Part shown: positions 1 to 11,340 of the stretch, one piece after another
Layout of the letters: each line of letters starts with the position of its first letter
How positions within the stretch are numbered: position 1 is the first letter of the stretch
IMG/VR virus record: IMGVR_UViG_3300029647_000018
Direction: 5' to 3' (one strand)
Source of the DNA: a virus
Taxonomy: Duplodnaviria; Heunggongvirae; Uroviricota; Caudoviricetes
DNA length: 11,340 bases
The notes under the pieces: model-generated
What the model was told of the DNA's origin: nothing
The model's database searches: none
The model's input: only the letters and a program-made list of their open reading frames with translations
Translations under genes and position numbers: made by a program

Positions 1-77
1 AAAAACGGTTCTGTGAAAGTGACACGAACCGATCTCCATCGATGTTACTCACCGATCTCCTTCACGGTAATACGCAC
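1..77. repeat. Left copy of a perfect inverted repeat (exact reverse complement of 11256..11332); begins at window base 1, so true length may exceed 77 bp
   Basis: Direct comparison: reverse complement of 11256..11332 equals 1..77 base for base; identity breaks at 78 versus 11255. Contains two 10-bp direct repeats ACCGATCTCC (28..37, 51..60) around an ATCGAT palindrome (38..43). Confidence 0.95.
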
Positions 78-319
78 TTATGGCAGTGAATGAAATACGC
101 ATCGCGGATAACAGCGCGTTTTGTCGCTTCCGGCCACTTATCATCCCAGCGGTCAACCGAAAATGACCACGCCAGCCACGGCAGCAGATTTGCCGGACAG
201 GTATCCGGGTTCCACAGCTCACGAATACTGACCGGCGTTTTTTCAATTTCCGCACAGGCTTTTGCGGCGGCGACTTCAAGCGGTGATGAGCCGGTCGGCA
301 GCAGTCGCGAATCACTCAT
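62..319 (-). pseudogene. I: Truncated baseplate protein gpI-like: about 81 native residues then CVLP-stop supplied by the inverted repeat (P2 gpI is about 176 aa)
   Basis: ORF starts MSDSRLLPTGSSPLEV..., matching my recollection of the P2 gpI N-terminus; ATG at 317..319 overlaps J stop (312..314). The last 4 codons and the stop (62..76) lie inside repeat 1..77. Immediately downstream of J as in P2. Confidence 0.8.
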
Positions 320-1220
320 CCGAGCCTCCCGTCACGACGCGGTATTCAGTACAGAAAGACGCCTGCGTATTGTTGAGCACGATGTCGGCCAGTGGTGCGG
401 CCAGCTCGACACGCTGCACGCCTTCCACATGCAAAGCGGCATAAATGGCAGACAGACGGATGTCGCGCCCCAGCCGGTGCTGTGCCGTGATGTACGCTTC
501 CAGTTTTTTCACGGCAGCAGCGCGGATGGGTTCGCTTTCGGGGCCAGGGTAAAGGTAAAGCGTGGCATTTATCTGGTATTCAACAATGGCGGCAGACTGC
601 ACGGTCACGCGGTCGGCCACCGGCCTGACGTCCTCGCCATTAAGGGCGTTACGCACCACAGCCAGCAGGTCTTCGGATGCGACGCCGTTATTTTCACGTG
701 ACAGCACAGAGATAGTAACGCAGGCCGGAGACGGACTGGTGACAGAAATATCGGCGACACGCCCGTCAGCACTGCGACCATGATACTGATAGGCACCCAC
801 CGACCCGGCGACGCTTAAACCTTCAAACGCCTGCTGAATACGCAACCGATAATCGGTGTCAGATTCCATCACTGCCGGTGTCGGCGGGATGGTCGAATCG
901 TCTGCCGGGGTGATAGTCAGGCGCGTGGTGTTGTAATTGGCACCAATCACATCAAGGTCATTACCGGCGGCACAGGCCAGCATCACCGCCCGTGCGGCCT
1001 CATTCACACGCTGACGCCAGATAAGCTCACGATAAGCATTTTCCTCCAGCAGCTTGACGAGAGGCTCGGATTCCAGCGTCAGGGTACGGGCGACCGCCTC
1101 CTGCTGGTCTTCCGGGTAAAGGGAAATCAGTGTCGCCTTGCGTTCGGCGAGAATGGTTTCAAAGTCCAGCTCCTCGACCACATCCGGTGCGGGTAGCTGG
1201 TTCAGGTCGATAATCGGCAT
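312..1220 (-). CDS. J: Baseplate assembly protein gpJ (baseplate wedge), 302 aa
   Basis: 302-aa ORF MPIIDLNQLPAPDVVEELDFE..., same length as P2 gpJ; position between W and I as in P2. Confidence 0.92.
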   Translation of the reverse strand: MPIIDLNQLPAPDVVEELDFETILAERKATLISLYPEDQQEAVARTLTLESEPLVKLLEENAYRELIWRQRVNEAARAVMLACAAGNDLDVIGANYNTTRLTITPADDSTIPPTPAVMESDTDYRLRIQQAFEGLSVAGSVGAYQYHGRSADGRVADISVTSPSPACVTISVLSRENNGVASEDLLAVVRNALNGEDVRPVADRVTVQSAAIVEYQINATLYLYPGPESEPIRAAAVKKLEAYITAQHRLGRDIRLSAIYAALHVEGVQRVELAAPLADIVLNNTQASFCTEYRVVTGGSDE

Positions 1221-1224
1221 GGTT

Positions 1225-1572
1225 TCAACTCACAGGGATGGTTAACGAAAGTGGCTGGCCGGTGTCGTTGTGCTGGCCGGTTAACGTGACCGTCATTCGC
1301 CCGTCAAAACTGCGCGCCGTAGTGACGGATGACAGGGTGACGCGGGGTTCCCATTTCAGCACCGCCATGTAACAGGCGACCTTAATCTGCAACTCAAGCG
1401 CCTGGGTCTGCGGCTGGTCAATCATTGATGCCAGCAACGAGCCGTAATCACGACGCATCACCCGTGAGCCGACCGGTGTGCGCAGGATATCGCCGATACT
1501 CTGGCTGATATGCTCAAGGTCAGTGACAGTCAGGCCATCACTGCGATTCATTCCGAGATAACGTGCTGTCAT
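1225..1572 (-). CDS. W: Baseplate protein gpW (gp25-like), 115 aa
   Basis: 115-aa ORF, same length as P2 gpW; start overlaps V stop as ATGA (1569..1572); flanked by V and J. Confidence 0.9.
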   Translation of the reverse strand: MTARYLGMNRSDGLTVTDLEHISQSIGDILRTPVGSRVMRRDYGSLLASMIDQPQTQALELQIKVACYMAVLKWEPRVTLSSVTTARSFDGRMTVTLTGQHNDTGQPLSLTIPVS

Positions 1573-2204
1573 AGAGGACTCCCGGTTGTGCCGCCGCTGT
1601 CTCCTGGGTGTTTGTGGGTATGCAGTACCTTACCGTTTGATGAGAGTTCACCGCCGGTGTGTTCAATGTTGCCGCGCATCGTCCCGCCCTTCTGCACTTC
1701 CAGCGTGCCGGTAATCAGCCTGTTGGTGCAGACCACCTCCGGTGTGTCCAGGGTGACGCGGGTTGATGCTTTCACCATGACCACCGGCACCGTGGCAGTA
1801 ACAGAATCAGAAGCCGTCACGCTGACCGTTTTAATTCCGCTTACCGTGAGTGCACTGGTTTCGGGTTCATATTCAATCACCGCTCCGTCAGGGAAACGGA
1901 TATGCAGGGCATCCGCCGACGCAGACGGCGCGGGGTTATCGCCGGAATAAATCCCCGGCAGAACGAACGCCGTGTCGAGTTCACCGCCCACGGCCAGAAT
2001 CAGCACCTGCTCCCCCACGGAAGGTGCCCACCATGTGCGCGAACGACCGGCACGATGGGTCAGCCACTGAAGCCAGTCAGTGCACATGCCGCCGGTCTGC
2101 ACACGGCAGCGACCGGCGTTAAGGTCGGTTTCGACGACAAGGCCGGTGCGGATCATGTTGCGCAGTGCGCGCGCGAGTTCCTGAATATTTGCGAGAGTGT
2201 TCAT
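1569..2204 (-). CDS. V: Baseplate spike/hub protein gpV, 211 aa
   Basis: 211-aa ORF MNTLANIQELARALRNMIRTG..., same length as P2 gpV; first gene after the S-V intergenic gap. Confidence 0.92.
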   Translation of the reverse strand: MNTLANIQELARALRNMIRTGLVVETDLNAGRCRVQTGGMCTDWLQWLTHRAGRSRTWWAPSVGEQVLILAVGGELDTAFVLPGIYSGDNPAPSASADALHIRFPDGAVIEYEPETSALTVSGIKTVSVTASDSVTATVPVVMVKASTRVTLDTPEVVCTNRLITGTLEVQKGGTMRGNIEHTGGELSSNGKVLHTHKHPGDSGGTTGSPL

Positions 2205-2270
2205 AACGGGAAGGATGCCGCCGGGTCATACCGGCGGCAATGTGACGATGAGGTGTCGGGAATGGCACAA
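2205..2270 (-). promoter_or_regulatory. S-V intergenic region; expected location of the Ogr-dependent late promoter for the V-W-J-I operon; contains a GC-rich hairpin (2217..2238)
   Basis: P2 has a late promoter upstream of V (established knowledge). In the sequence I see only a 66-bp gap and the dyad GCCGCCGG-gtcata-CCGGCGGC; no exact TGT-N12-ACA element found (nearest is TGT-N10-ACA at 2254..2269). Confidence 0.3.
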
Positions 2271-2723
2271 CTAACGGTCGAGGTGAGCCAGGATAATCTC
2301 TTCAATCATCTGCACATCCTCACCGGTAAAGCCGAGCAGAGGACGCGCCGGATAATCAATTTTCTTACCGTCTTTCCGGGTTTCTTCCGACAGACCGAAC
2401 TGATGCACGCTGGCGATTTTCGGTGACTTCCCGCCGTAAAATTCCATTGATGCCTGTTCAGGGCTGGCGCGGATATGCAAAAAACGACTGGTGATAAGTT
2501 TCGCAAACATTTTTCGCTTAACGCGACCGGTCTTTTTTCTGGCGCTCTGCTGCTGACGTGGCGCGTAGGGTGTGCCGTCCGGGGCTTTCTGAGCCATCAC
2601 CCGGCGCTGCTGACTCTGCCGCAGACGTTTCGCCAGTTCGGCACTCAGTCGCCGACGCCCTGACGGTGACAGCGATTCAGTCAGTCCGGCCAGCCGGTCT
2701 TCAAAACGCTTAAACTCATTCAT
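2271..2723 (-). CDS. S: Tail completion protein gpS, 150 aa
   Basis: 150-aa ORF, same length as P2 gpS; start (2721..2723) overlaps R stop (2716..2718). Confidence 0.9.
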   Translation of the reverse strand: MNEFKRFEDRLAGLTESLSPSGRRRLSAELAKRLRQSQQRRVMAQKAPDGTPYAPRQQQSARKKTGRVKRKMFAKLITSRFLHIRASPEQASMEFYGGKSPKIASVHQFGLSEETRKDGKKIDYPARPLLGFTGEDVQMIEEIILAHLDR

Positions 2724-3186
2724 CCCACTTGCTCACCAGTTCGCCATTGATATAAAGCTCCATCGGGCGGGTGACCGGCTCCGGCGGCGGGGGTTCCGGA
2801 ATATTCTTCACATGCAGTGCGCCGTCAACCTCACTGACCAGCGTGCGCTCGGTCAGCATCAGGCTGATGCTGATATCAAAGCTGCTGTCATTGTTGATGT
2901 CTGCATAAAACGTGAAGCCCTTTTTCTGGCCTTCGTCGGTGGTCATGATGTCGGGCTGATTTTCCCGCAGCCACGCCAGCACCGGCACGATGAGCAGGTC
3001 AAAATCACCGGTAAAGTCGGTCACAATGACATTGAGCGTGTAACGCTTTTCGAATGACAGCGACGCCGCCAGTGTGGAGGCAATACTCCCGTTATCCACG
3101 AATATCCGCAGCATCTCTGGACTGGTTTTCAACACCGTGACGGCATCAGTCAGCGCCCTGCGCAGGCTGTCGGGTTTGAGCATCAT
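2716..3186 (-). CDS. R: Tail completion protein gpR (155-156 aa; start may be the second ATG at 3181..3183)
   Basis: ORF MMLKPDSLRRALTDAV...; P2 gpR is 155 aa; tandem ATG ATG at 3181..3186. Confidence 0.88.
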   Translation of the reverse strand: MMLKPDSLRRALTDAVTVLKTSPEMLRIFVDNGSIASTLAASLSFEKRYTLNVIVTDFTGDFDLLIVPVLAWLRENQPDIMTTDEGQKKGFTFYADINNDSSFDISISLMLTERTLVSEVDGALHVKNIPEPPPPEPVTRPMELYINGELVSKWDE

Positions 3187-3436
3187 TTTCGTCCTGACAG
3201 TGTTTAATCATTTTTACCTGGCTGGCACAGCGTGCCAGCGCGTCCTCAAGCTGCCGGATATCGGCACTTAAATCGCCGTTCTTCTGCGGGTCACTGCCCG
3301 GCATCGGGCAAAGACTCACTTTCGGGCAGGCGTTGTGGACAATCACTGGCGTCGGTGCAGGCGGGGCGCTGGTGCAACCGGCGCACAGCATCAGGCAGGT
3401 CAGCACCGTACCAGCGGCGAAAATCCTCGTTTTCAT
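3146..3436 (-). CDS. lysC: LysC, Rz1-like outer-membrane lipoprotein spanin (o-spanin), 96 aa, nested out of frame in lysB and running into R
   Basis: Internal ATG at 3434..3436 in an alternative frame of lysB gives MKTRIFAAGTVLTCLMLCAGCTSAPPAPTP...: signal-peptide-like segment with Cys-containing lipobox-like motif and a Pro-rich stretch. 96 aa equals the P2 LysC size. Confidence 0.75.
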   Translation of the reverse strand: MKTRIFAAGTVLTCLMLCAGCTSAPPAPTPVIVHNACPKVSLCPMPGSDPQKNGDLSADIRQLEDALARCASQVKMIKHCQDENDAQTRQPAQGAD

Positions 3437-3716
3437 TAAGTAACCTCGTGATGGTTTTCTCGCGCTGTGCTTCACGCTTCGCAGCGTTCTCCAGCTCCTG
3501 ACGCAGAGCCACCTGCGCCAGCTCGTTTTTGTCTGCTCTGGTGAGCGCAACATGAAGCTGATTTTTCAGCATGGTGATGGTCGTCTGCTGTTCACTGGCG
3601 ACGTTGTTCGCCCTGTCCAGCGAGGCGCGCAGGCTGGCATTTTTATGTTTCACCAGAAACAGACCGGCCACCGCCAGCGATAACAACACGACCAGCACAG
3701 TCATCAGCTTTGACAT
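3291..3716 (-). CDS. lysB: LysB, Rz-like inner-membrane spanin (i-spanin), 141 aa
   Basis: 141-aa ORF with N-terminal hydrophobic anchor MSKLMTVLVVLLSLAVAGLFLV followed by a charged, coiled-coil-like region; same size as P2 LysB. Confidence 0.88.
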   Translation of the reverse strand: MSKLMTVLVVLLSLAVAGLFLVKHKNASLRASLDRANNVASEQQTTITMLKNQLHVALTRADKNELAQVALRQELENAAKREAQREKTITRLLNENEDFRRWYGADLPDAVRRLHQRPACTDASDCPQRLPESESLPDAGQ

Positions 3717-4129
3717 GGTTCCCGCCCCTCAAAACGCTGACGGCAGGCCGTACGTATCAGCCGGAAGAACAGCGACGCCACGAGATAAATCAGCGCGGTA
3801 AAAATCCACCCGGCAGCGACCAGCGAGATAAACGTCGTCACCATCACCACCAGAGCCGCCGCCCGTCTGCGCCACGGCACCGGCTGCAAAAACAGCGACG
3901 CGACAATCTTCACGGCCAGCGATTCCGGCGGCAGCTCCCGCCCGTAGCGTTCCAGCACATACTCCGTGGTATACACGCCGACACCACCGGCAACCACACA
4001 GATAACCGTCGCCAGAATCGCCCAGGCGGCGACAAAATTGACGGCCACGCTCTGCGGGTAAATCAGGGACAGTGCCAGCATCAGCGCCAGCGACACGTTC
4101 AGCATCAGTGAAAGGGATAATTTCTTCAT
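3704..4129 (-). CDS. lysA: LysA, multi-pass membrane lysis-timing protein, 141 aa
   Basis: 141-aa ORF with 3-4 hydrophobic helices; position between K and lysB; P2 LysA is 141 aa; GGAG 9 nt upstream of ATG. Confidence 0.85.
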   Translation of the reverse strand: MKKLSLSLMLNVSLALMLALSLIYPQSVAVNFVAAWAILATVICVVAGGVGVYTTEYVLERYGRELPPESLAVKIVASLFLQPVPWRRRAAALVVMVTTFISLVAAGWIFTALIYLVASLFFRLIRTACRQRFEGREPCQS

Positions 4130-4143
4130 GGTGTTTACTCCGT

Positions 4144-4641
4144 TTAAGCCGGTACGCCGCCAGCGGTACGCCAGACGGTGACCAGTTTTTCCAGTGAATG
4201 CTCACGCTGACCGTAACCGGCTCCCGGCAGGGACGCCCAGATATTGCGACAGCGTGAAATGGCGCGCTCAATGCGTCCCGCCCGGATGTCATCCAGTGCA
4301 CCGCGTTCGCGGATCAACTGAATGGCAAGTCTGTCCTGTGACAACGGACTGAAATCCGGCAGGGCAAGCTGTTTGCGGTAATGCGGCCAGAACAGGTAAA
4401 GCTGCTGATAGCGACCGGAGGCCGTGGATTTTTCACCGCGACGGTTAAACACCTTCGCCGGTCGGCCATGCGCGAACGGGTGGTCACTGTAGTCAGTGAA
4501 AATTTCCGGCTTCCCGTCCAGTCCGGTGACTATCACGTCATAGCCCCGGTTTTTCGTCAGCGGATGATTCGCCGTCCCTTCGGACACGGCCAGCATGTCG
4601 AGAAAGGCCGCGATATTCTGATGCGTGTTAATTACCGGCAT
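4144..4641 (-). CDS. K: Endolysin gpK (lysozyme-like), 165 aa
   Basis: 165-aa ORF MPVINTHQNIAAFLDMLAVSEGT... with lysozyme-like E...D...T N-terminal motif; start overlaps Y stop (TAATG at 4639..4643). Confidence 0.9.
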   Translation of the reverse strand: MPVINTHQNIAAFLDMLAVSEGTANHPLTKNRGYDVIVTGLDGKPEIFTDYSDHPFAHGRPAKVFNRRGEKSTASGRYQQLYLFWPHYRKQLALPDFSPLSQDRLAIQLIRERGALDDIRAGRIERAISRCRNIWASLPGAGYGQREHSLEKLVTVWRTAGGVPA

Positions 4642-4922
4642 TACGGTTTCCCCCTGCCCTTAAAACGGCGCTGAATGGCAATCTCAATCACCTGATAACC
4701 GGCGATACCCAGCATGGAGCCGATACCGCACACCGCAGGCAGTGACAGGTCAGGAAACTGCACCAGAACAACACCGGCAACCATCGAGACAAAACCACCG
4801 AGCAACATGCGCCCGATAAACAGACGCGGGGTGATGGGTTCACCACCGGCAAGCACCTTGCCGACAACAATCAGCACCCCAATCATGAAAAGCGACAGGA
4901 CGCTTTTTTCTTCTGCTGTCAT
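4641..4922 (-). CDS. Y: Holin gpY, 93 aa
   Basis: 93-aa ORF with hydrophobic transmembrane segments and charged C-terminus; directly upstream of the endolysin; same size as P2 gpY. Confidence 0.9.
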   Translation of the reverse strand: MTAEEKSVLSLFMIGVLIVVGKVLAGGEPITPRLFIGRMLLGGFVSMVAGVVLVQFPDLSLPAVCGIGSMLGIAGYQVIEIAIQRRFKGRGKP

Positions 4923-4925
4923 GCG

Positions 4926-5129
4926 TTACTCCCACAGATTGACAGTTTCAGCCACGGGCGCGGCCTGAACGTCGGGCAGTTCGACGGCGGTGCCGTGTGG
5001 CAGCACCGCACCCAGTTCAGCCAGTCCCGGATTTGCGGCGAGCACGGTCTCAACCACGCCCTCAGTGCGCCCGTAATACCGGACACAAATGGCGTCGAGC
5101 GTGTCGCCCTGTAGCGCAAAGGTCTTCAT
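4926..5129 (-). CDS. X: Tail protein gpX (small LysM-like protein), 67 aa
   Basis: Internal start MKTFALQGDTLDAICVRYYG... gives 67 aa (P2 gpX size); ATG (5127..5129) overlaps L stop (5129..5131) as ATGA. The track's 90-aa version is an upstream extension. Confidence 0.85.
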   Translation of the reverse strand: MKTFALQGDTLDAICVRYYGRTEGVVETVLAANPGLAELGAVLPHGTAVELPDVQAAPVAETVNLWE

Positions 5130-5638
5130 CAGATTTGACTCACGATGCAGCGCGGCTTGTCCTGGATACGCGCCACCGCCCAGCGCATATCCCGCCACAG
5201 TTCATCAATGGTGCTGTCAATGCTGTCAGCCTTCTTGTCACCTTTCGCACTGGCATCCACGCCGCGATAACGCTCATAAAGCGACGCGGTCGCCATCGCA
5301 CACACGGCGCGCTCGTAGTAAAAAACTTTGATGCTTTCACCGTCGATGTCGTCCGCCGGGACGTCCGCCAGACGCGTAAAACCGGCAGTAATTTTCTGTT
5401 CGCGGTACTCGTACAGCTCCGCATTCGTTTCAGCCATGCCTGACTTGATGGCCTCACGCAGACGGGCGGGGGCGACGGTCTGCTCAAGGCGCATACGTTC
5501 CCGGACGCGCTTCGGGTCGATATCGGGAAAAAAGAACGTGTTTTTAATCACCGGCTCGTCGCCTGCCGGTTGCGGGATGACCACCGTACCCTCACCGGAC
5601 ACGGGAGCCTCCTTTCGCGGAATAATCAGCGTCATCAT
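5129..5638 (-). CDS. L: Head completion/stabilisation protein gpL, 169 aa
   Basis: Start at tandem MM (5633..5638) preceded by GAGGTGG gives 169 aa (P2 gpL size), MMTLIIPRKEAPVSGEG...; the 189-aa track ORF is an upstream extension. Confidence 0.88.
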   Translation of the reverse strand: MMTLIIPRKEAPVSGEGTVVIPQPAGDEPVIKNTFFFPDIDPKRVRERMRLEQTVAPARLREAIKSGMAETNAELYEYREQKITAGFTRLADVPADDIDGESIKVFYYERAVCAMATASLYERYRGVDASAKGDKKADSIDSTIDELWRDMRWAVARIQDKPRCIVSQI

Positions 5639-5737
5639 GACCACCTCTGAAAAGTCGGGCGGTGGACGCCGGTGCAGTGTCAGATGATTCACCCTCACTG
5701 ACCGGCGTGCCGCCCTGGCGCGGGGCGCATTCGGTTG

Positions 5738-6481
5738 TTAACTGGCTTTCTTTTTCGGGCGTCCACGTTTTGCCGGTGTCACGCTCCGGGTCTTACGCGG
5801 GGCGCGGGTGGCCGCTTTGGGTTGTGGCTCCGGCTTCGGTTTCAGCTCCCGCTCCAGTCGTTCAATCTCTTTTTTGACGCCTGCCTGACAGTCGAGCTGT
5901 GTCGCACGTTGCAGGTGCGCCAGTGCACCTGCGGCATCACCAGCGTCACGCAGAAACAGACCGGTGATTTTGTGCAGCTTTGCGCGCACTTCATCAGGCA
6001 TGTCAGCCGTGGCGGTCAGTTCAAGGGTGTCCGTCAGCAGGCGGGTATCCACGGATTCACCGGCAGCGTGAGCGCGCATGGCCGCGAGCGCGACCTCCTC
6101 GGTGAACATGTACGGCGGGGTGCGGCGGTGTTTACCCGGCATGGTCAGACCGTACTTCAGGGCATAACGGGCAATCTCCAGCGCACCGGCAATATCGCCG
6201 GTATCCAGACGCCACAGCATGACCGTCATCAGAATGTCATCCTGTGCACCTTTGCCCTGCTCCAGCACGCCGTTCACCCACGGCAACCAGAACGGCAACA
6301 GTTCGCGTTTTTTCGCGGCCTTAAGCTCTTTTGAATAAATCGCTTTCAGTGTGCGCTGGTCTGCGGCCAGCTTGACCAGCATCTGCTCATAGACAGTTGC
6401 ATGTCGCAGCGGGGCGGCTTCCCGCTGCGCGGTCATCGCTGCCGAGACCCGCATCATGTGGCGCTGTGCGGGACTCGTCAT
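5738..6481 (-). CDS. M: Terminase endonuclease (small) subunit gpM, 247 aa
   Basis: 247-aa ORF (P2 gpM size) with a very basic C-terminal tail ...TPAKRGRPKKKAS; immediately downstream of N with a 3-nt spacer. Confidence 0.9.
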   Translation of the reverse strand: MTSPAQRHMMRVSAAMTAQREAAPLRHATVYEQMLVKLAADQRTLKAIYSKELKAAKKRELLPFWLPWVNGVLEQGKGAQDDILMTVMLWRLDTGDIAGALEIARYALKYGLTMPGKHRRTPPYMFTEEVALAAMRAHAAGESVDTRLLTDTLELTATADMPDEVRAKLHKITGLFLRDAGDAAGALAHLQRATQLDCQAGVKKEIERLERELKPKPEPQPKAATRAPRKTRSVTPAKRGRPKKKAS

Positions 6482-6484
6482 CGG

Positions 6485-7558
6485 TTACGCTCCCGGCTCT
6501 GCGGTCGCCTTAGCAGGTGTGGAGAAATCACCGACCTTAATTTTTTCCACCAGACAACCGGCTGCGTAGTCTTCCACTACGTAATCAATGTTCATTGACT
6601 CGTAGTTCTCCACGCGGTCGAGTTTCGGGTTTTCCACAATCACGCGGCGATGGCTGTCATCCATGTAGTAGATGGACAGGTTTTCCAGCTTCGTGATGAG
6701 CATCGCATCCGCCGGGAAGTACGGGACGCGTACCGCTGGCAGGTTGCCGATGCGTTTCTGGCTGATGATGACGTCAGCGGCCAGCATCTCGCTGTTGTCC
6801 TGCTCCTTGTTGACGATGGGGAAATACTTGTCCGCCAGTAGCTGACGCCCCACAATCACCACAAGGTCAGGGTCTTCCTGATACCACGGTTCAATCAGGT
6901 TGTTGGTCGCATCCATCACCAGTGCATCAAGGCTGGCATAATCACCGCCCTTACCCACGCGGATAACCTCAGAGGTGGTGCGGCCTTCCTCGTCAGTGAC
7001 CTTGCTCATCACGCGCGCCGGGGCTTCATTGCGGTATTTCTGCAGCCAGCCGACCGCCACATCCTGCAGCATCGGATTGCTGTTGCGGTCAGAGGTTTCG
7101 GCACGCTTCACGCCGTTAAAACCGGCCATGATGAAATCAAGGGACTGGCGTTTGATAATGGCGTTACGGATACGGAGCTGGAAATCCTGATAACGCGCCC
7201 ACAGGTCAAGCGTTTTGTAGCGGATATAAAAATCGAAGTTAATCTGGTCGCATTCGTACTTACTGGACGCCAGCTTCGAGAAGTCCTTCGGCTGACGCTC
7301 GGTGCCACCGGCGGTGTCGGTGGTGCTGGCGATGGAGCCGGTGACACCGATACCAATTTTTTCCCCTTTCATTTCGCTGACCGGCACAATGTTGATGCGG
7401 GTCAGGAAATCAGAGGACTCCTGCATGGTGTTCATCAGGGTCTGGGTGACCGACGGTTCAACGGTGAATTTTTTCGACACATCACCGGCGTCGATGCCGT
7501 TCAGTTCGGCAACACGGGACAGGTAAGCATTAAATTTAAAGCGGGTTTCCTGGCGCAT
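6485..7558 (-). CDS. N: Major capsid protein gpN, 357 aa
   Basis: 357-aa ORF MRQETRFKFNAYLSRVAELNGI..., same length as P2 gpN; AGGA 7 nt upstream of ATG. Confidence 0.95.
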   Translation of the reverse strand: MRQETRFKFNAYLSRVAELNGIDAGDVSKKFTVEPSVTQTLMNTMQESSDFLTRINIVPVSEMKGEKIGIGVTGSIASTTDTAGGTERQPKDFSKLASSKYECDQINFDFYIRYKTLDLWARYQDFQLRIRNAIIKRQSLDFIMAGFNGVKRAETSDRNSNPMLQDVAVGWLQKYRNEAPARVMSKVTDEEGRTTSEVIRVGKGGDYASLDALVMDATNNLIEPWYQEDPDLVVIVGRQLLADKYFPIVNKEQDNSEMLAADVIISQKRIGNLPAVRVPYFPADAMLITKLENLSIYYMDDSHRRVIVENPKLDRVENYESMNIDYVVEDYAAGCLVEKIKVGDFSTPAKATAEPGA

Positions 7559-7616
7559 AGTTTTTCCTGAAATTAAGTGTTAATCGTGAAGGTTTTCCCG
7601 GACTGACTGACGCCGA

Positions 7617-8471
7617 TCAGCAGTTCGTCATCAGGGCGTCACCGCCACCGCCGGTGGCCTTGCTGCGGCGCTGCTGGGTCAGACTTTCGGTGTGGTCGAG
7701 ACTGTTTTTCAGGCGGGTGAATGCCTGGCTGGTTTCATCCGCCCTGTCAGTCACATCCTGCTTAAGTGCGGAAAAGGCGTTTTCCATCTCAGCGAGGCGC
7801 TGCTCAGTGGCGCTCAGTTTTTCCTGCACATGTTCAGCAACAGCGGTCACCGCTTCATGCACGTCATTCAGACGGGCGTCATCGCTGGCCTGTTTGCGGC
7901 CAAAAATGGATTTCACCTTTTCGGTCAGGGCGGTGAACACGGTTTCAGGCAGGTCTTCAAATTCCAGCTCAACGGGCGTTGCCACTGAAATCAGATTTTC
8001 AGGGCTTAATTTGAAGCGGTTCAGAGGGTTGTGTTTTGCCGTGCGGCAGAATTCCAGGTATTCCGTGCCGAGGCTTGCCGGGTCATCGGTGACGGCCAGC
8101 CCCACCAGATAACATTTGCCGGTGTTGGCAAAGTTCGGCTGAATTTCCATTGAGGTGTAGACCTTCTGCGCGGCCTTGTTCATCGCGATAAGGTCATCGG
8201 TCGGGGTGATTTTCGCAAACAGCGCCCATTTGCCTTTCAGCGCCGAATCATCGTCAATCTTTTCAGCCTTCAGTTCGACCACATCGCCATAACGCTTAAA
8301 AATACCGTCAGGCAGGATGCCGCGCAGATGTTCCAGGTTAATGCGGCAACCATAGACACGCGGGTCAAAGGTTTCGGCCATTTCCTGAATATCCTGCGCA
8401 CTGATGACACGCCCGTCACAGGTGTCACCCTCAACGCCGATACGAAAGAATTTTGAGACTTTTTTTGCCAT
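7617..8471 (-). CDS. O: Capsid scaffolding protein gpO with N-terminal serine protease domain, 284 aa
   Basis: Start at MAKKVSKFFRIGVEGDT... (ATG 8469..8471) gives 284 aa (P2 gpO size). Residues D19, H48 and S107 are present at the positions I recall as the P2 gpO catalytic triad. Confidence 0.9.
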   Translation of the reverse strand: MAKKVSKFFRIGVEGDTCDGRVISAQDIQEMAETFDPRVYGCRINLEHLRGILPDGIFKRYGDVVELKAEKIDDDSALKGKWALFAKITPTDDLIAMNKAAQKVYTSMEIQPNFANTGKCYLVGLAVTDDPASLGTEYLEFCRTAKHNPLNRFKLSPENLISVATPVELEFEDLPETVFTALTEKVKSIFGRKQASDDARLNDVHEAVTAVAEHVQEKLSATEQRLAEMENAFSALKQDVTDRADETSQAFTRLKNSLDHTESLTQQRRSKATGGGGDALMTNC

Positions 8472-8644
8472 TGTCAGGAGTCCTGAATAGTGATTAGAGG
8501 AGTCACATGTCGGCATCAGTTTCCCGACGATGCGCATCCTCCGCCATCAGTCCCGGATGGCTTATCACTGACACAACAGCACCTTAGCGAATCGCGGGGC
8601 GCGACTCAGTAGCCTTGCCGTGTATTCATCACGGCGAGGTATTC
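8472..8644. promoter_or_regulatory. Divergent O/P intergenic region; expected site of the two divergent Ogr-dependent late promoters
   Basis: 173-bp non-coding gap between divergent operons, as in P2. Seen in sequence: imperfect dyad TGG-N12-ACA (8558..8575), direct repeat CATCAGT (8514..8520, 8545..8551), small hairpin 8509..8528. Exact promoter elements not verified. Confidence 0.5.
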
Positions 8645-10417
8645 ATGACCATCACCACAGACACCACTCTTTTGCACGACCCGCGTCGTCAGGCGGCGCT
8701 GCTGTACTGGCAGGGGTTTTCCGTGCCGCAGATTGCCGCCATGTTGCAGATGAAACGCCCGACGGTGCAGAGCTGGAAACAGCGCGACGGCTGGGACAGC
8801 GTTGCCCCCATCAGCCGTGTCGAAATGAGTCTGGAAGCGCGGCTGACCCAGCTCATTATCAAACCGCAGAAAACCGGCGGTGACTTCAAGGAAATTGACC
8901 TGCTCGGACGCCAGATTGAACGACTGGCACGGGTAAACCGCTACAGCCAGACCGGCAACGAGGCAGACCTTAATCCGAACGTCGCTAACCGCAACAAAGG
9001 CGGGCGTCGCAAACCGAAAAAGAATTTTTTCAGTGACGAGGCTATCGAAAAGCTGGAGCAGATTTTCTTTGAGCAGTCTTTCGACTATCAGTTGCACTGG
9101 TATCGCGCCGGGCTTGAGCACCGCATCCGCGATATCCTGAAATCCCGCCAGATTGGCGCGACGTTTTATTTTTCCCGCGAGGCGCTGCTGCGCGCCCTGA
9201 AAACAGGTCATAACCAGATTTTTCTGTCGGCCAGTAAAACGCAGGCGTATGTATTCCGTGAATACATCATCGCCTTTGCCCGTCTGGTTGACGTTGACCT
9301 GACCGGTGACCCGATTGTCCTGGGCAATAACGGCGCAAAACTGATTTTTCTCGGCACCAACTCCAACACCGCGCAGAGCCATAACGGCGACCTGTACGTC
9401 GATGAGATTTTCTGGATCCCGAATTTTCAGGTACTGCGTAAGGTGGCATCAGGTATGGCCTCACAGAGTCACCTGCGCTCGACCTATTTCTCCACCCCGT
9501 CCACGCTGGCGCACGACGCCTATCCGTTCTGGTCCGGTGAACTGTTTAACCGGGGACGCGCCAGCGCCGCCGAACGCGTGGAAATCGACGTCAGTCATAA
9601 CGCCCTTGCCGGTGGGCTTCTCTGTGCGGACGGCCAGTGGCGGCAGATTGTCACCATTGAGGACGCCCTGAAAGGTGGCTGCACGCTGTTCGACATTGAG
9701 CAGCTCAAACGCGAAAACAGCGCCGACGATTTTAAAAACCTGTTCATGTGTGAATTTGTTGACGACAAGGCGTCGGTGTTCCCGTTCGAGGAGCTGCAAC
9801 GCTGCATGGTCGACACGCTGGAAGAATGGGAAGACTATGCGCCGTTTGCCACCAATCCGTTCGGCTCACGTCCGGTATGGATTGGTTACGACCCGTCACA
9901 CCGTGGCGACAGCGCCGGATGCGTGGTACTGGCACCGCCGGTGGTGGCCGGTGGCAAATTCAGAATACTTGAGCGTCACCAGTGGAAAGGCATGGACTTT
10001 GCCACCCAGGCGGAATCCATCCGCAAACTCACCGAAAAATATAACGTTGAATACATCGGGATTGATGCCACCGGCCTCGGTGTCGGCGTGTTCCAGCTCG
10101 TGCGCTCGTTCTATCCCGCCGCGCGCGATATCCGCTACACGCCGGAAATGAAAACCGCAATGGTGCTCAAGGCAAAAGACGTCATCCGCCGTGGCTGTCT
10201 GGAATATGACGTCAGCGCCACCGACATCACCAGCTCGTTTATGGCTATCCGCAAGACCATGACCAGCAGCGGACGCAGCGCCACCTATGAGGCCAGCCGC
10301 AGCGAGGAAGCCAGCCACGCCGACCTCGCCTGGGCGACCATGCACGCCCTGTTAAATGAGCCACTCACCGCCGGTATCAGCACTCCGCTGACATCCACCA
10401 TTCTGGAGTTTTACTGA
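8645..10417 (+). CDS. P: Terminase ATPase (large) subunit gpP, 590 aa
   Basis: Start MTITTDTTLLHDPRRQAALLYWQGF... (ATG 8645, GAGGT upstream) gives 590 aa (P2 gpP size); candidate Walker A-like FLSASKT and Walker B-like LYVDE motifs; stop overlaps Q start (TGATG 10415..10419). Confidence 0.93.
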   Translation: MTITTDTTLLHDPRRQAALLYWQGFSVPQIAAMLQMKRPTVQSWKQRDGWDSVAPISRVEMSLEARLTQLIIKPQKTGGDFKEIDLLGRQIERLARVNRYSQTGNEADLNPNVANRNKGGRRKPKKNFFSDEAIEKLEQIFFEQSFDYQLHWYRAGLEHRIRDILKSRQIGATFYFSREALLRALKTGHNQIFLSASKTQAYVFREYIIAFARLVDVDLTGDPIVLGNNGAKLIFLGTNSNTAQSHNGDLYVDEIFWIPNFQVLRKVASGMASQSHLRSTYFSTPSTLAHDAYPFWSGELFNRGRASAAERVEIDVSHNALAGGLLCADGQWRQIVTIEDALKGGCTLFDIEQLKRENSADDFKNLFMCEFVDDKASVFPFEELQRCMVDTLEEWEDYAPFATNPFGSRPVWIGYDPSHRGDSAGCVVLAPPVVAGGKFRILERHQWKGMDFATQAESIRKLTEKYNVEYIGIDATGLGVGVFQLVRSFYPAARDIRYTPEMKTAMVLKAKDVIRRGCLEYDVSATDITSSFMAIRKTMTSSGRSATYEASRSEEASHADLAWATMHALLNEPLTAGISTPLTSTILEFY

Positions 10418-11271
10418 TGAGCAAGAAAAAAGGGAAAACACCGCAACCTGCGGCAAAAACAATCACCGCCAGCGCCCCGAAAATGGAGGCATTCACCTTT
10501 GGTGAGCCGGTGCCGGTACTCGACCGCCGTGACATTCTGGATTACGTCGAGTGCATCAGTAACGGCAGATGGTATGAGCCACCGGTCAGCTTTACCGGTC
10601 TGGCAAAAAGCCTGCGTGCTGCCGTACATCACAGCTCACCGATTTACGTCAAACGTAATATTCTGGCTTCAACGTTTATTCCGCACCCGTGGCTTTCCCA
10701 GCAGGATTTCAGCCGCTTTGTGCTGGATTTTCTGGTGTTCGGTAATGCGTTTCTGGAAAAGCGCTACAGCACCACCGGTAAGGTCATCAGACTGGAAACC
10801 TCACCGGCAAAATATACCCGCCGTGGTGTTGAGGAGGATGTTTACTGGTGGGTGCCGTCCTTCAACGAGCCGACACCTTTCGCGCCCGGCTCCGTGTTTC
10901 ACCTGCTGGAGCCGGATATTAATCAGGAGCTGTACGGCCTGCCGGAATATCTCAGCGCCCTTAATTCTGCCTGGCTGAATGAATCAGCTACGCTGTTCCG
11001 CCGCAAGTATTACGAAAATGGCGCACATGCCGGATACATCATGTACGTCACCGATGCCGTGCAGGATCGCAACGATATCGAAATGCTTCGCGAAAACATG
11101 GTTAAGTCGAAAGGCCGCAACAACTTTAAAAACCTGTTTCTCTATGCCCCGCAGGGGAAAGCTGACGGCATTAAAATTATCCCACTCAGTGAAGTGGCAA
11201 CGAAGGACGATTTTTTTAATATCAAAAAAGCCAGCGCCGCTGACCTGCTGGACGCGTGCGTATTACCGTGA
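10417..11271 (+). pseudogene. Q: Truncated portal protein gpQ-like: about 280 native residues then CVLP-stop from the inverted repeat (P2 gpQ is about 344 aa)
   Basis: ORF MSKKKGKTPQPAAKTITASAPKMEAF... matches my recollection of the P2 portal N-terminus; the reading frame enters repeat 11256..11332 and stops at 11269..11271. Confidence 0.8.
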
Positions 11272-11332
11272 AGGAGATCGGTGAGTAACATCGATGGAGA
11301 TCGGTTCGTGTCACTTTCACAGAACCGTTTTT
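11256..11332. repeat. Right copy of the perfect inverted repeat (reverse complement of 1..77)
   Basis: Exact 77/77 reverse-complement identity with 1..77; 8 further bases (11333..11340, aaattacc) have no counterpart inside the window because the left copy starts at base 1. Confidence 0.95.
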
Positions 11333-11340
11333 AAATTACC

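Follow-up and report, generated by a model that had tools for sequence, protein, structure and literature searches.

The terminal arms of the analysed stretch (the window; 11,340 nt of the virus record IMGVR_UViG_3300029647_000018) are very probably the outermost part of the right, istB-proximal end of ISEc12, an insertion sequence of the IS21 family, and carry its R1 and R2 repeats. The paired 10-mers reported inside each arm by the initial annotation are a real and functional feature that is already known, namely the multiple terminal repeats of the IS21 family. The window itself holds ends only, and the assignment to istA and istB rests on identical reference copies. The features of the window are listed below by position.

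1-76, minus strand: left copy of the ISEc12 right end, outermost 76 nt, 100% identical to positions 15094-15019 of the reference locus L001 (E. coli BCE-1)
77-319, minus strand: tail gene I of P2 type, truncated by the left ISEc12 copy (TIGR01634 tail_P2_I, profile positions 1-76 of 139)
77-11256, no single strand: P2-like prophage late region between the IS ends, with 97.7% identity to P2-like prophages annotated in complete E. coli genomes
10417-11256, plus strand: portal gene of P2 type, truncated by the right ISEc12 copy (TIGR01540 portal_PBSX, 204.8 bits, profile positions 1-270 of 320)
11257-11340, plus strand: right copy of the ISEc12 right end, outermost 84 nt with the tip at 11257, 100% identical over these 84 nt to the istB-proximal end in BCE-1 and matched in E. 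coli genomes and phage PhiR12

The two arms (1-77 and 11256-11332) are 100% complementary and form an inverted repeat. The ISEc12 tip TGCGTATT starts at 11257 in the right arm and, on the minus strand, ends at position 76 in the left arm; base 77/11256 belongs to the target flank and matches by chance. The 77-nt length of the repeat is fixed by the left edge of the window. On the right, the arm extends within ISEc12 as far as 11340 (IS position 84), the left arm ends at IS position 76, and in reference copies the repeat is the entire 2,581-bp element.

When 5,426 complete E. coli genomes were searched with a 101-nt query spanning the right junction, 1,798 of them contained the ISEc12 right end, with 5,440 matching places in total. 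The same query matched 887 places on 770 plasmids as well as four phage records. The phage matches begin exactly at window base 11256, and the right arm was 100% identical to phage PhiR12 over 85 nt. In annotated records the arm sequence lies directly outside istB of the "IS21-like element ISEc12", for which istA is annotated too. The DDE transposase IstA of the BCE-1 reference copy scored 310.5 bits on NF033546 (cut-off 160) and contained rve and Mu-transpos_C_2 domains; the AAA+ helper IstB scored 270 bits on NF038214 (cut-off 200) and also matched PF01695. The suggestion that the repeat is a functional site and not a random duplication is borne out by the 100% identity of the arm to the istB-proximal end of annotated ISEc12 copies.

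Comparison of both ends of a full copy gave a length of 2,581 bp with tips TGCGTATT...AATACGCA. The tips are of the TG...CA type and the two ends form an imperfect inverted repeat, the right end beginning with TGCGTATTACCGTGAAGG and the left end with TGCGTATTTTCATGAAAGG. The BCE-1 reference copy is flanked by the 5-bp target duplication CGCGC, and 5-bp duplications were also found in related elements (TTGGC in a Psychromonadaceae copy, TGAGG in Psychrobium). The first 44 nt of ISEc12 were invariant at 15 distinct insertion sites; invariance among E. coli copies is weak evidence, as ISEc12 is near-identical everywhere and its copies are not independent. The repeat in ISEc12 and that in the window arms are identical, and only the context is particular, with two right ends facing each other across 11.2 kb of P2-like prophage.

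Outside E. coli, a stand-alone contig assigned to Moraxella osloensis (CAXORL010000029.1, locus L003, 2,511 nt) has an IstA that shares 100% identity with the E. coli ISEc12 protein. This copy represents either contamination or very recent transfer.

The segment between the arms has the gene order of a P2-like late region: I' (truncated), J, W, V, S, R, the lysis genes, X, L, M, N and O on the minus strand, and P and Q' (truncated) on the plus strand. At the right junction, the portal ORF extends into the IS by 15 nt, up to a stop at 11271, and a partial portal gene is annotated at the same site in BCE-1. At the left junction, about 81 of the 176 codons of tail gene I are left; the ORF enters the IS and stops at 62, and the intact gene I of other genomes aligns from window base 74 onward only.

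These truncated genes bear on the possibility, raised as a refuting condition in the initial annotation, that the 77-mer is coding sequence from a duplicated gene. On this reading, the internal repeats would reflect a repeated peptide motif. ORFs do cross both arms (49-315 and 62-319 on the minus strand; 10417-11271 and 10979-11284 on the plus strand). However, they are phage genes that enter the IS by a few codons and then stop, and the same sequence adjoins 15 unrelated insertion sites. The istB gene of the intact element reaches only to IS position 86, which leaves positions 1-85 non-coding. Duplication of a coding sequence was therefore rejected, and its probability is negligible.

Both junctions (76/77 and 11256/11257) show the right, istB-proximal ISEc12 end towards the phage segment. 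This arrangement arose either from two ISEc12 copies inserted independently in inverted orientation or from an inversion between copies. The gene I junction was present in none of the 5,426 complete E. coli genomes, the one apparent full-length match consisting of two joined pieces 600 bp apart. The portal junction has a close counterpart in BCE-1: the window reads GACGCG followed by TGCGT (11251-11260), and BCE-1 reads GACGCGC followed by TGCGT (L001 15010-15023), so that the two insertion points lie 1 nt apart in the same orientation. The phage flanks of the window and BCE-1 are 2.3% diverged up to the junction, with differences as near as 11184, which makes independent insertions likelier than shared descent. 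The near-identical insertion points in the portal gene hint at a possible target hot spot.

When the insertion flanks of 15 distinct sites were aligned, the base before the tip was G at 11 of 16 junctions, and several of the flanks resembled CTGCTGGAC. This sample is biased, consisting mostly of BLAST picks similar to the window's own flank, and no conclusion on a target-site consensus beside the tip was drawn from it.

Within gene I, the minus strand of window positions 87-101 reads TGCGTATTTCATTCA, close to the ISEc12 left tip (TGCGTATTTTCATGAA), at a distance of 11-25 nt from the site of insertion. BCE-1 carries AATAGGCA at the place of the window's AATACGCA. The left-tip-like sequence in gene I could be due to chance, or it could be an end-like sequence that attracts insertion.

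We also considered whether the inverted arrangement of the arms is an artefact of assembly, in which a short-read contig ends in a collapsed multi-copy IS while the arm sequence itself is real. The contig ends would then carry pieces of the repeat of k-mer length, and the segment would not necessarily adjoin two separate IS copies. The left arm starts at window base 1, and the shared arm length is 77, a common de Bruijn (assembly) k value. In addition, draft assemblies contain relatives of the same IS as separate contigs about 2.5 kb long (L003, L004, L016, L017 and L026). Against this, the right arm is 8 nt longer than the left (11333-11340), and each junction of a phage gene with an IS tip must exist in the reads even then, so the two inward-facing right ends would be real. 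An artefact is unlikely, and it would have no bearing on the internal architecture of the arm.

Inside the arms, the repeat coordinates given by the initial annotation proved exact: ACCGATCTCC occupies 28-37 and 51-60, and GGAGATCGGT occupies 11273-11282 and 11296-11305. The ATCGAT hexamers were likewise correctly placed at 38-43 and 11290-11295, and the full palindrome around them spans 8 bp, CATCGATG (37-44 and 11289-11296). No further copies of the 10-mer were found elsewhere within the window. An exact direct repeat of at least 10 nt arose in 28 of 20,000 mononucleotide shuffles of the 76-nt arm (p ~ 0.0014), and about 0.5% of the overlapping 76-mers of the window interior contained a repeat of at least 10 nt. 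The 10-mer repeat by itself is thus only moderately unusual; its non-randomness follows from its 23-bp phasing and its conservation in relatives.

Read from the tip inward, the right end consists of TGCGT, unit R1 ATTACCGTGAAGGAGATCGGTGA, unit R2 GTAACATCGATGGAGATCGGTTC and a degenerate third unit GTGTCACTTTCACAGAACCGTTT, located as follows.

11262-11284 (mirror 49-71), plus strand: unit R1, ATTACCGTGAAGGAGATCGGTGA, IS positions 6-28, assigned from the direct-repeat family and unit tables, core motif 20 nt from the tip
11285-11307 (mirror 26-48), plus strand: unit R2, GTAACATCGATGGAGATCGGTTC, IS positions 29-51, starting 23 bp after R1
11308-11330 (mirror 3-25), plus strand: degenerate third unit, GTGTCACTTTCACAGAACCGTTT, IS positions 52-74, in the 23-bp register

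Each 23-bp unit is made up of block 1 (approximately ATAACAT), a variable spacer of 4-5 nt and block 2 (GGAGATCGGT), and the two conserved blocks lie about one helical turn apart. Block 2 of R1 is the 10-mer at 11273-11282, and R2 holds both ATCGAT (11290-11295) and the 10-mer at 11296-11305. Counted from the unit table, R1 and R2 match at 15 of 23 positions. The third unit has GAAC in place of the GATC of the other units and is kept in the Enterobacter, Erwinia and Arsenophonus elements. It also resembles the unit of distant Francisellaceae-type relatives (TTTCACTTTGACCCGAAC).

The ATCGAT hexamer is formed by the last two bases of R2 block 1 (ATAACAT) together with the variable spacer, and its aligned counterpart in R1 is CCGTGA; it is no separate core. 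It is changed to ATTGAT in the relatives from Enterobacter and Erwinia, whose IstA identity is 93%, with the 10-mers intact. The proposal that the subsites flank a palindromic core in the manner of a recombinase site consequently did not hold, the 10-mers being direct and not inverted, ATCGAT lying inside R2, and the hexamer being altered in these relatives.

A wider form of that proposal would make the arms crossover sites of a site-specific recombinase, with ATCGAT as the core and the 10-mers flanking it, and the 11-kb segment a programmed invertible element. Such a system would share with the window two inverted arms enclosing a discrete segment and a short palindrome between two repeated 10-mers. 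However, besides the direct orientation of the 10-mers and the unconserved palindrome, the arms run on into istB and istA in every reference copy, and they cut the portal and tail genes, unlike a programmed switch. The annotated BCE-1 equivalent of the window interior comprises P2-type late genes only, without a recombinase. With direct subsites, an unconserved palindrome and arms that are IS ends, an invertible segment was rejected as highly improbable.

The ISEc12 end remains the preferred reading of the arms, and the opposite end of the element has a related structure. The ISEc12 left end has four units in direct phase and an inverted one upstream of istA. The core motif lies 20 and 43 nt from the tip at the right end, and 21, 44, 67 and 90 nt from it at the left end. 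In the BCE-1 reference copy, outside the window (L001 17462-17525), L4 pairs with the inverted fifth unit as a 22-nt inverted repeat upstream of istA, with 95% complementarity and the halves 20 nt apart; this inverted repeat may be an operator. Another inverted unit, also outside the window (L001 15104-15126, IS positions 86-108), lies over the last istB codons and the stop codon.

This architecture corresponds to that of characterized IS21-family elements, whose ends carry direct repeats L1/L2 and R1/R2 at 23-bp spacing and whose insertions generate 5-bp duplications (PMC10122671). For IS5376, it was demonstrated that integration by IstA requires two complete repeats; HTH-1 and HTH-2 contact the two conserved blocks of each repeat, which are separated by one DNA turn, and the IstA tetramer places a catalytic pair on R1 and a structural pair on R2 (PMC10122671). 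ISEc12 resembles IS5376/IS21 (PDB 8B4H; PMC10122671) in its TG...CA tips, its 5-bp duplication and ends that each have two or more direct repeats spaced by 23 bp. The units are bipartite in both, their blocks being separated by about one helical turn, and tandem copies with a junction of a few bp are also shared. The unit sequences, however, are unrelated. The conserved blocks of IS5376 are described as GC-rich with about 10 variable bp between them (PMC10122671), whereas block 1 of ISEc12 is AT-rich and its spacer is just 4-5 nt. The prototype left end has two units, while that of ISEc12 has four direct and one inverted.

By homology with IS5376, the tandem 23-bp units that follow the 5-nt tip TGCGT (which gives a 3'-CA end) are predicted to bind IstA. 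The catalytic IstA subunits would occupy R1, beside the cleaved CA tip, and the structural subunits would occupy R2; a tetramer would then synapse two ISEc12 ends, aided by the 23-bp spacing. We infer by this analogy both the binding, with the 10-mers of the window as part of the IstA sites R1 and R2, and the division of labour between the two units. The IstA proteins of ISEc12 and IS5376 match over the catalytic region only (E = 3e-13), and their N-terminal regions, which include the HTH region, do not align by sequence. This precludes a mapping of the ISEc12 blocks onto the HTH-1 and HTH-2 contacts of IS5376.

Several copies of a transposase site per end, in unequal numbers at left and right, are likewise found in phage Mu and Tn7, a comparison drawn previously (PMC10122671). 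These systems also share a tetrameric DDE transposase with tandem HTH domains (PMC10122671). They belong to other families with other site sequences and spacing, and MuA engages splayed ends, not negatively supercoiled ones (PMC10122671).

Head-to-tail ISEc12 pairs were found in two complete genomes, in which a right tip, 2 nt (AC) and a left tip lie between full copies.

E. coli 4/1-1, NZ_CP023844.1 (L068 3038-3066): ISEc12 tandem with the junction ...AATACGCA AC TGCGTATT...
H86, NZ_OZ501570.1: ISEc12 tandem with a 2-nt junction

Tandems of IS21 itself have a 2-bp junction. The abutted right and left tips of ISEc12 give TTCACG-N16/17-TATTTT (N16 in the L068 tandem), hexamers that resemble the promoter of the IS21 tandem (PMC10122671). 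A consensus scan did not call a promoter at a real ISEc12 tandem junction, where the hexamers match 8 of 12 positions, below the threshold. A junction promoter is accordingly unsupported by the consensus scan, and promoter activity at the ISEc12 junction is at most weakly suggested by the sequence.

A scan for loci encoding IstA relatives yielded 53, at 47-100% IstA identity. In total, 23 ends were aligned, taken from ISEc12 and from eleven further loci (47-93% IstA identity). The distance from the tip to the first core motif is 19-21 nt in all 23, and the motif returns at intervals of 22-24 nt, mostly of 23. The number of units varies from 2 to 4 at right ends and from 3 to 5 at left ends. 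The unit sequence varies by clade, with identity averaging 62% within an element versus 45% between clades, and the consensus units are as follows.

ISEc12 group: ATAACATnnAnGGAGATCGnTnA
Psychromonadaceae / Psychrobium: TTCTCATnGAnGCTGATCAC
Aeromonas / Rheinheimera: ATAACATnCATGCCGATCnC
Nitrosomonas: TTCCAnnnnAAAGCTGCCACC
Francisellaceae-like: TTTCACnnnAAATCGAACnC

This pattern suggests that the sites co-evolve with their own transposase. Fixed geometry combined with a sequence that tracks the transposase is the behaviour expected of protein-binding sites. The initial annotation had likened the subsites to those of transposon ends and proposed that their conservation be checked in other copies and homologues. 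Both points stand: the subsites are invariant at the 15 distinct insertion sites, and their position and 23-bp phase are kept down to 47% IstA identity, with the geometry preserved across the 23 ends. The 10-mers can likewise be retained as parts of repeated, predicted protein-binding subsites, the plan of which is conserved among IstA relatives.

One element of the units is shared across clades. In ISEc12, R1, R2 and L1-L4 all contain GATC, at the centre of the unit, and so do all units at all the ends examined from the four GATC-bearing clades, with two or three GATC-bearing units at right ends and three or four at left ends. The surrounding bases differ between these clades (GAGATCGG, CTGATCAC, TTGATCAC and CCGATCAC). 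The two most distant clades, a single Nitrosomonas element and a pair of Francisellaceae-like ones, have TGCC or GAAC in its place. ISEc12 contains 9 GATC in its terminal 320 nt and 23 in its 2,581 nt.

As a separate observation, the phage part of the window (77-11255) contains 5 GATC in 11,178 nt (2151, 4312, 7615, 9415 and 11065) versus about 44 expected at 1 per 256. GATC is strongly depleted in these P2-like phage genes.

On top of the preferred assignment to ISEc12, we tentatively consider that GATC in block 2 might make IstA binding sensitive to Dam methylation. Methylation would then gate IstA binding at all sites at once and tie ISEc12 transposition to the replication fork, through the hemimethylated state behind it. 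Three observations are in line with this doubtful but possible layer of control: GATC is invariant in all units of four clades although neighbouring bases have changed, it is lacking in the Nitrosomonas and Francisellaceae relatives, and nine copies lie in the terminal 320 nt of ISEc12. The hosts of the GATC-bearing elements (Enterobacterales, Aeromonas, Rheinheimera and Alteromonadales) belong to orders with Dam, and those of the GATC-lacking clades to orders not known to carry it. However, the elements without GATC are also the most divergent ones, and the difference may reflect just one or two changes in transposase recognition.

Coupling of transposition to the passage of the replication fork by Dam is known for IS10, IS50 and IS903, in which, as in ISEc12, GATC lies within the transposase-binding site. 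In those elements GATC occurs only once or twice, either at one end or within the promoter, whereas ISEc12 has GATC in every R1/R2 and L1-L4 unit at both ends. In the library searched, no paper linked IS21-family elements with Dam methylation; the one paper that contained the terms of both topics had an unrelated title and abstract, and no such control was found described for this family.

Overall, the result re-identifies the multiple terminal repeats that are well described for IS21-family elements, here in an insertion sequence very common in E. coli, and it amounts to little as a discovery. It does explain the terminal inverted repeat of the window as an ISEc12 end. With both the portal gene and tail gene I disrupted, the P2-like prophage is very likely defective, and the 11-kb segment, lying between inverted IS copies, may be inverted or mis-joined in assemblies. 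The relatives show that the plan of 23-bp units is kept while the unit sequence changes with the transposase. Their comparison also raises the modest idea of Dam methylation, which, if true, would mean replication-linked control of an IS21-family element.
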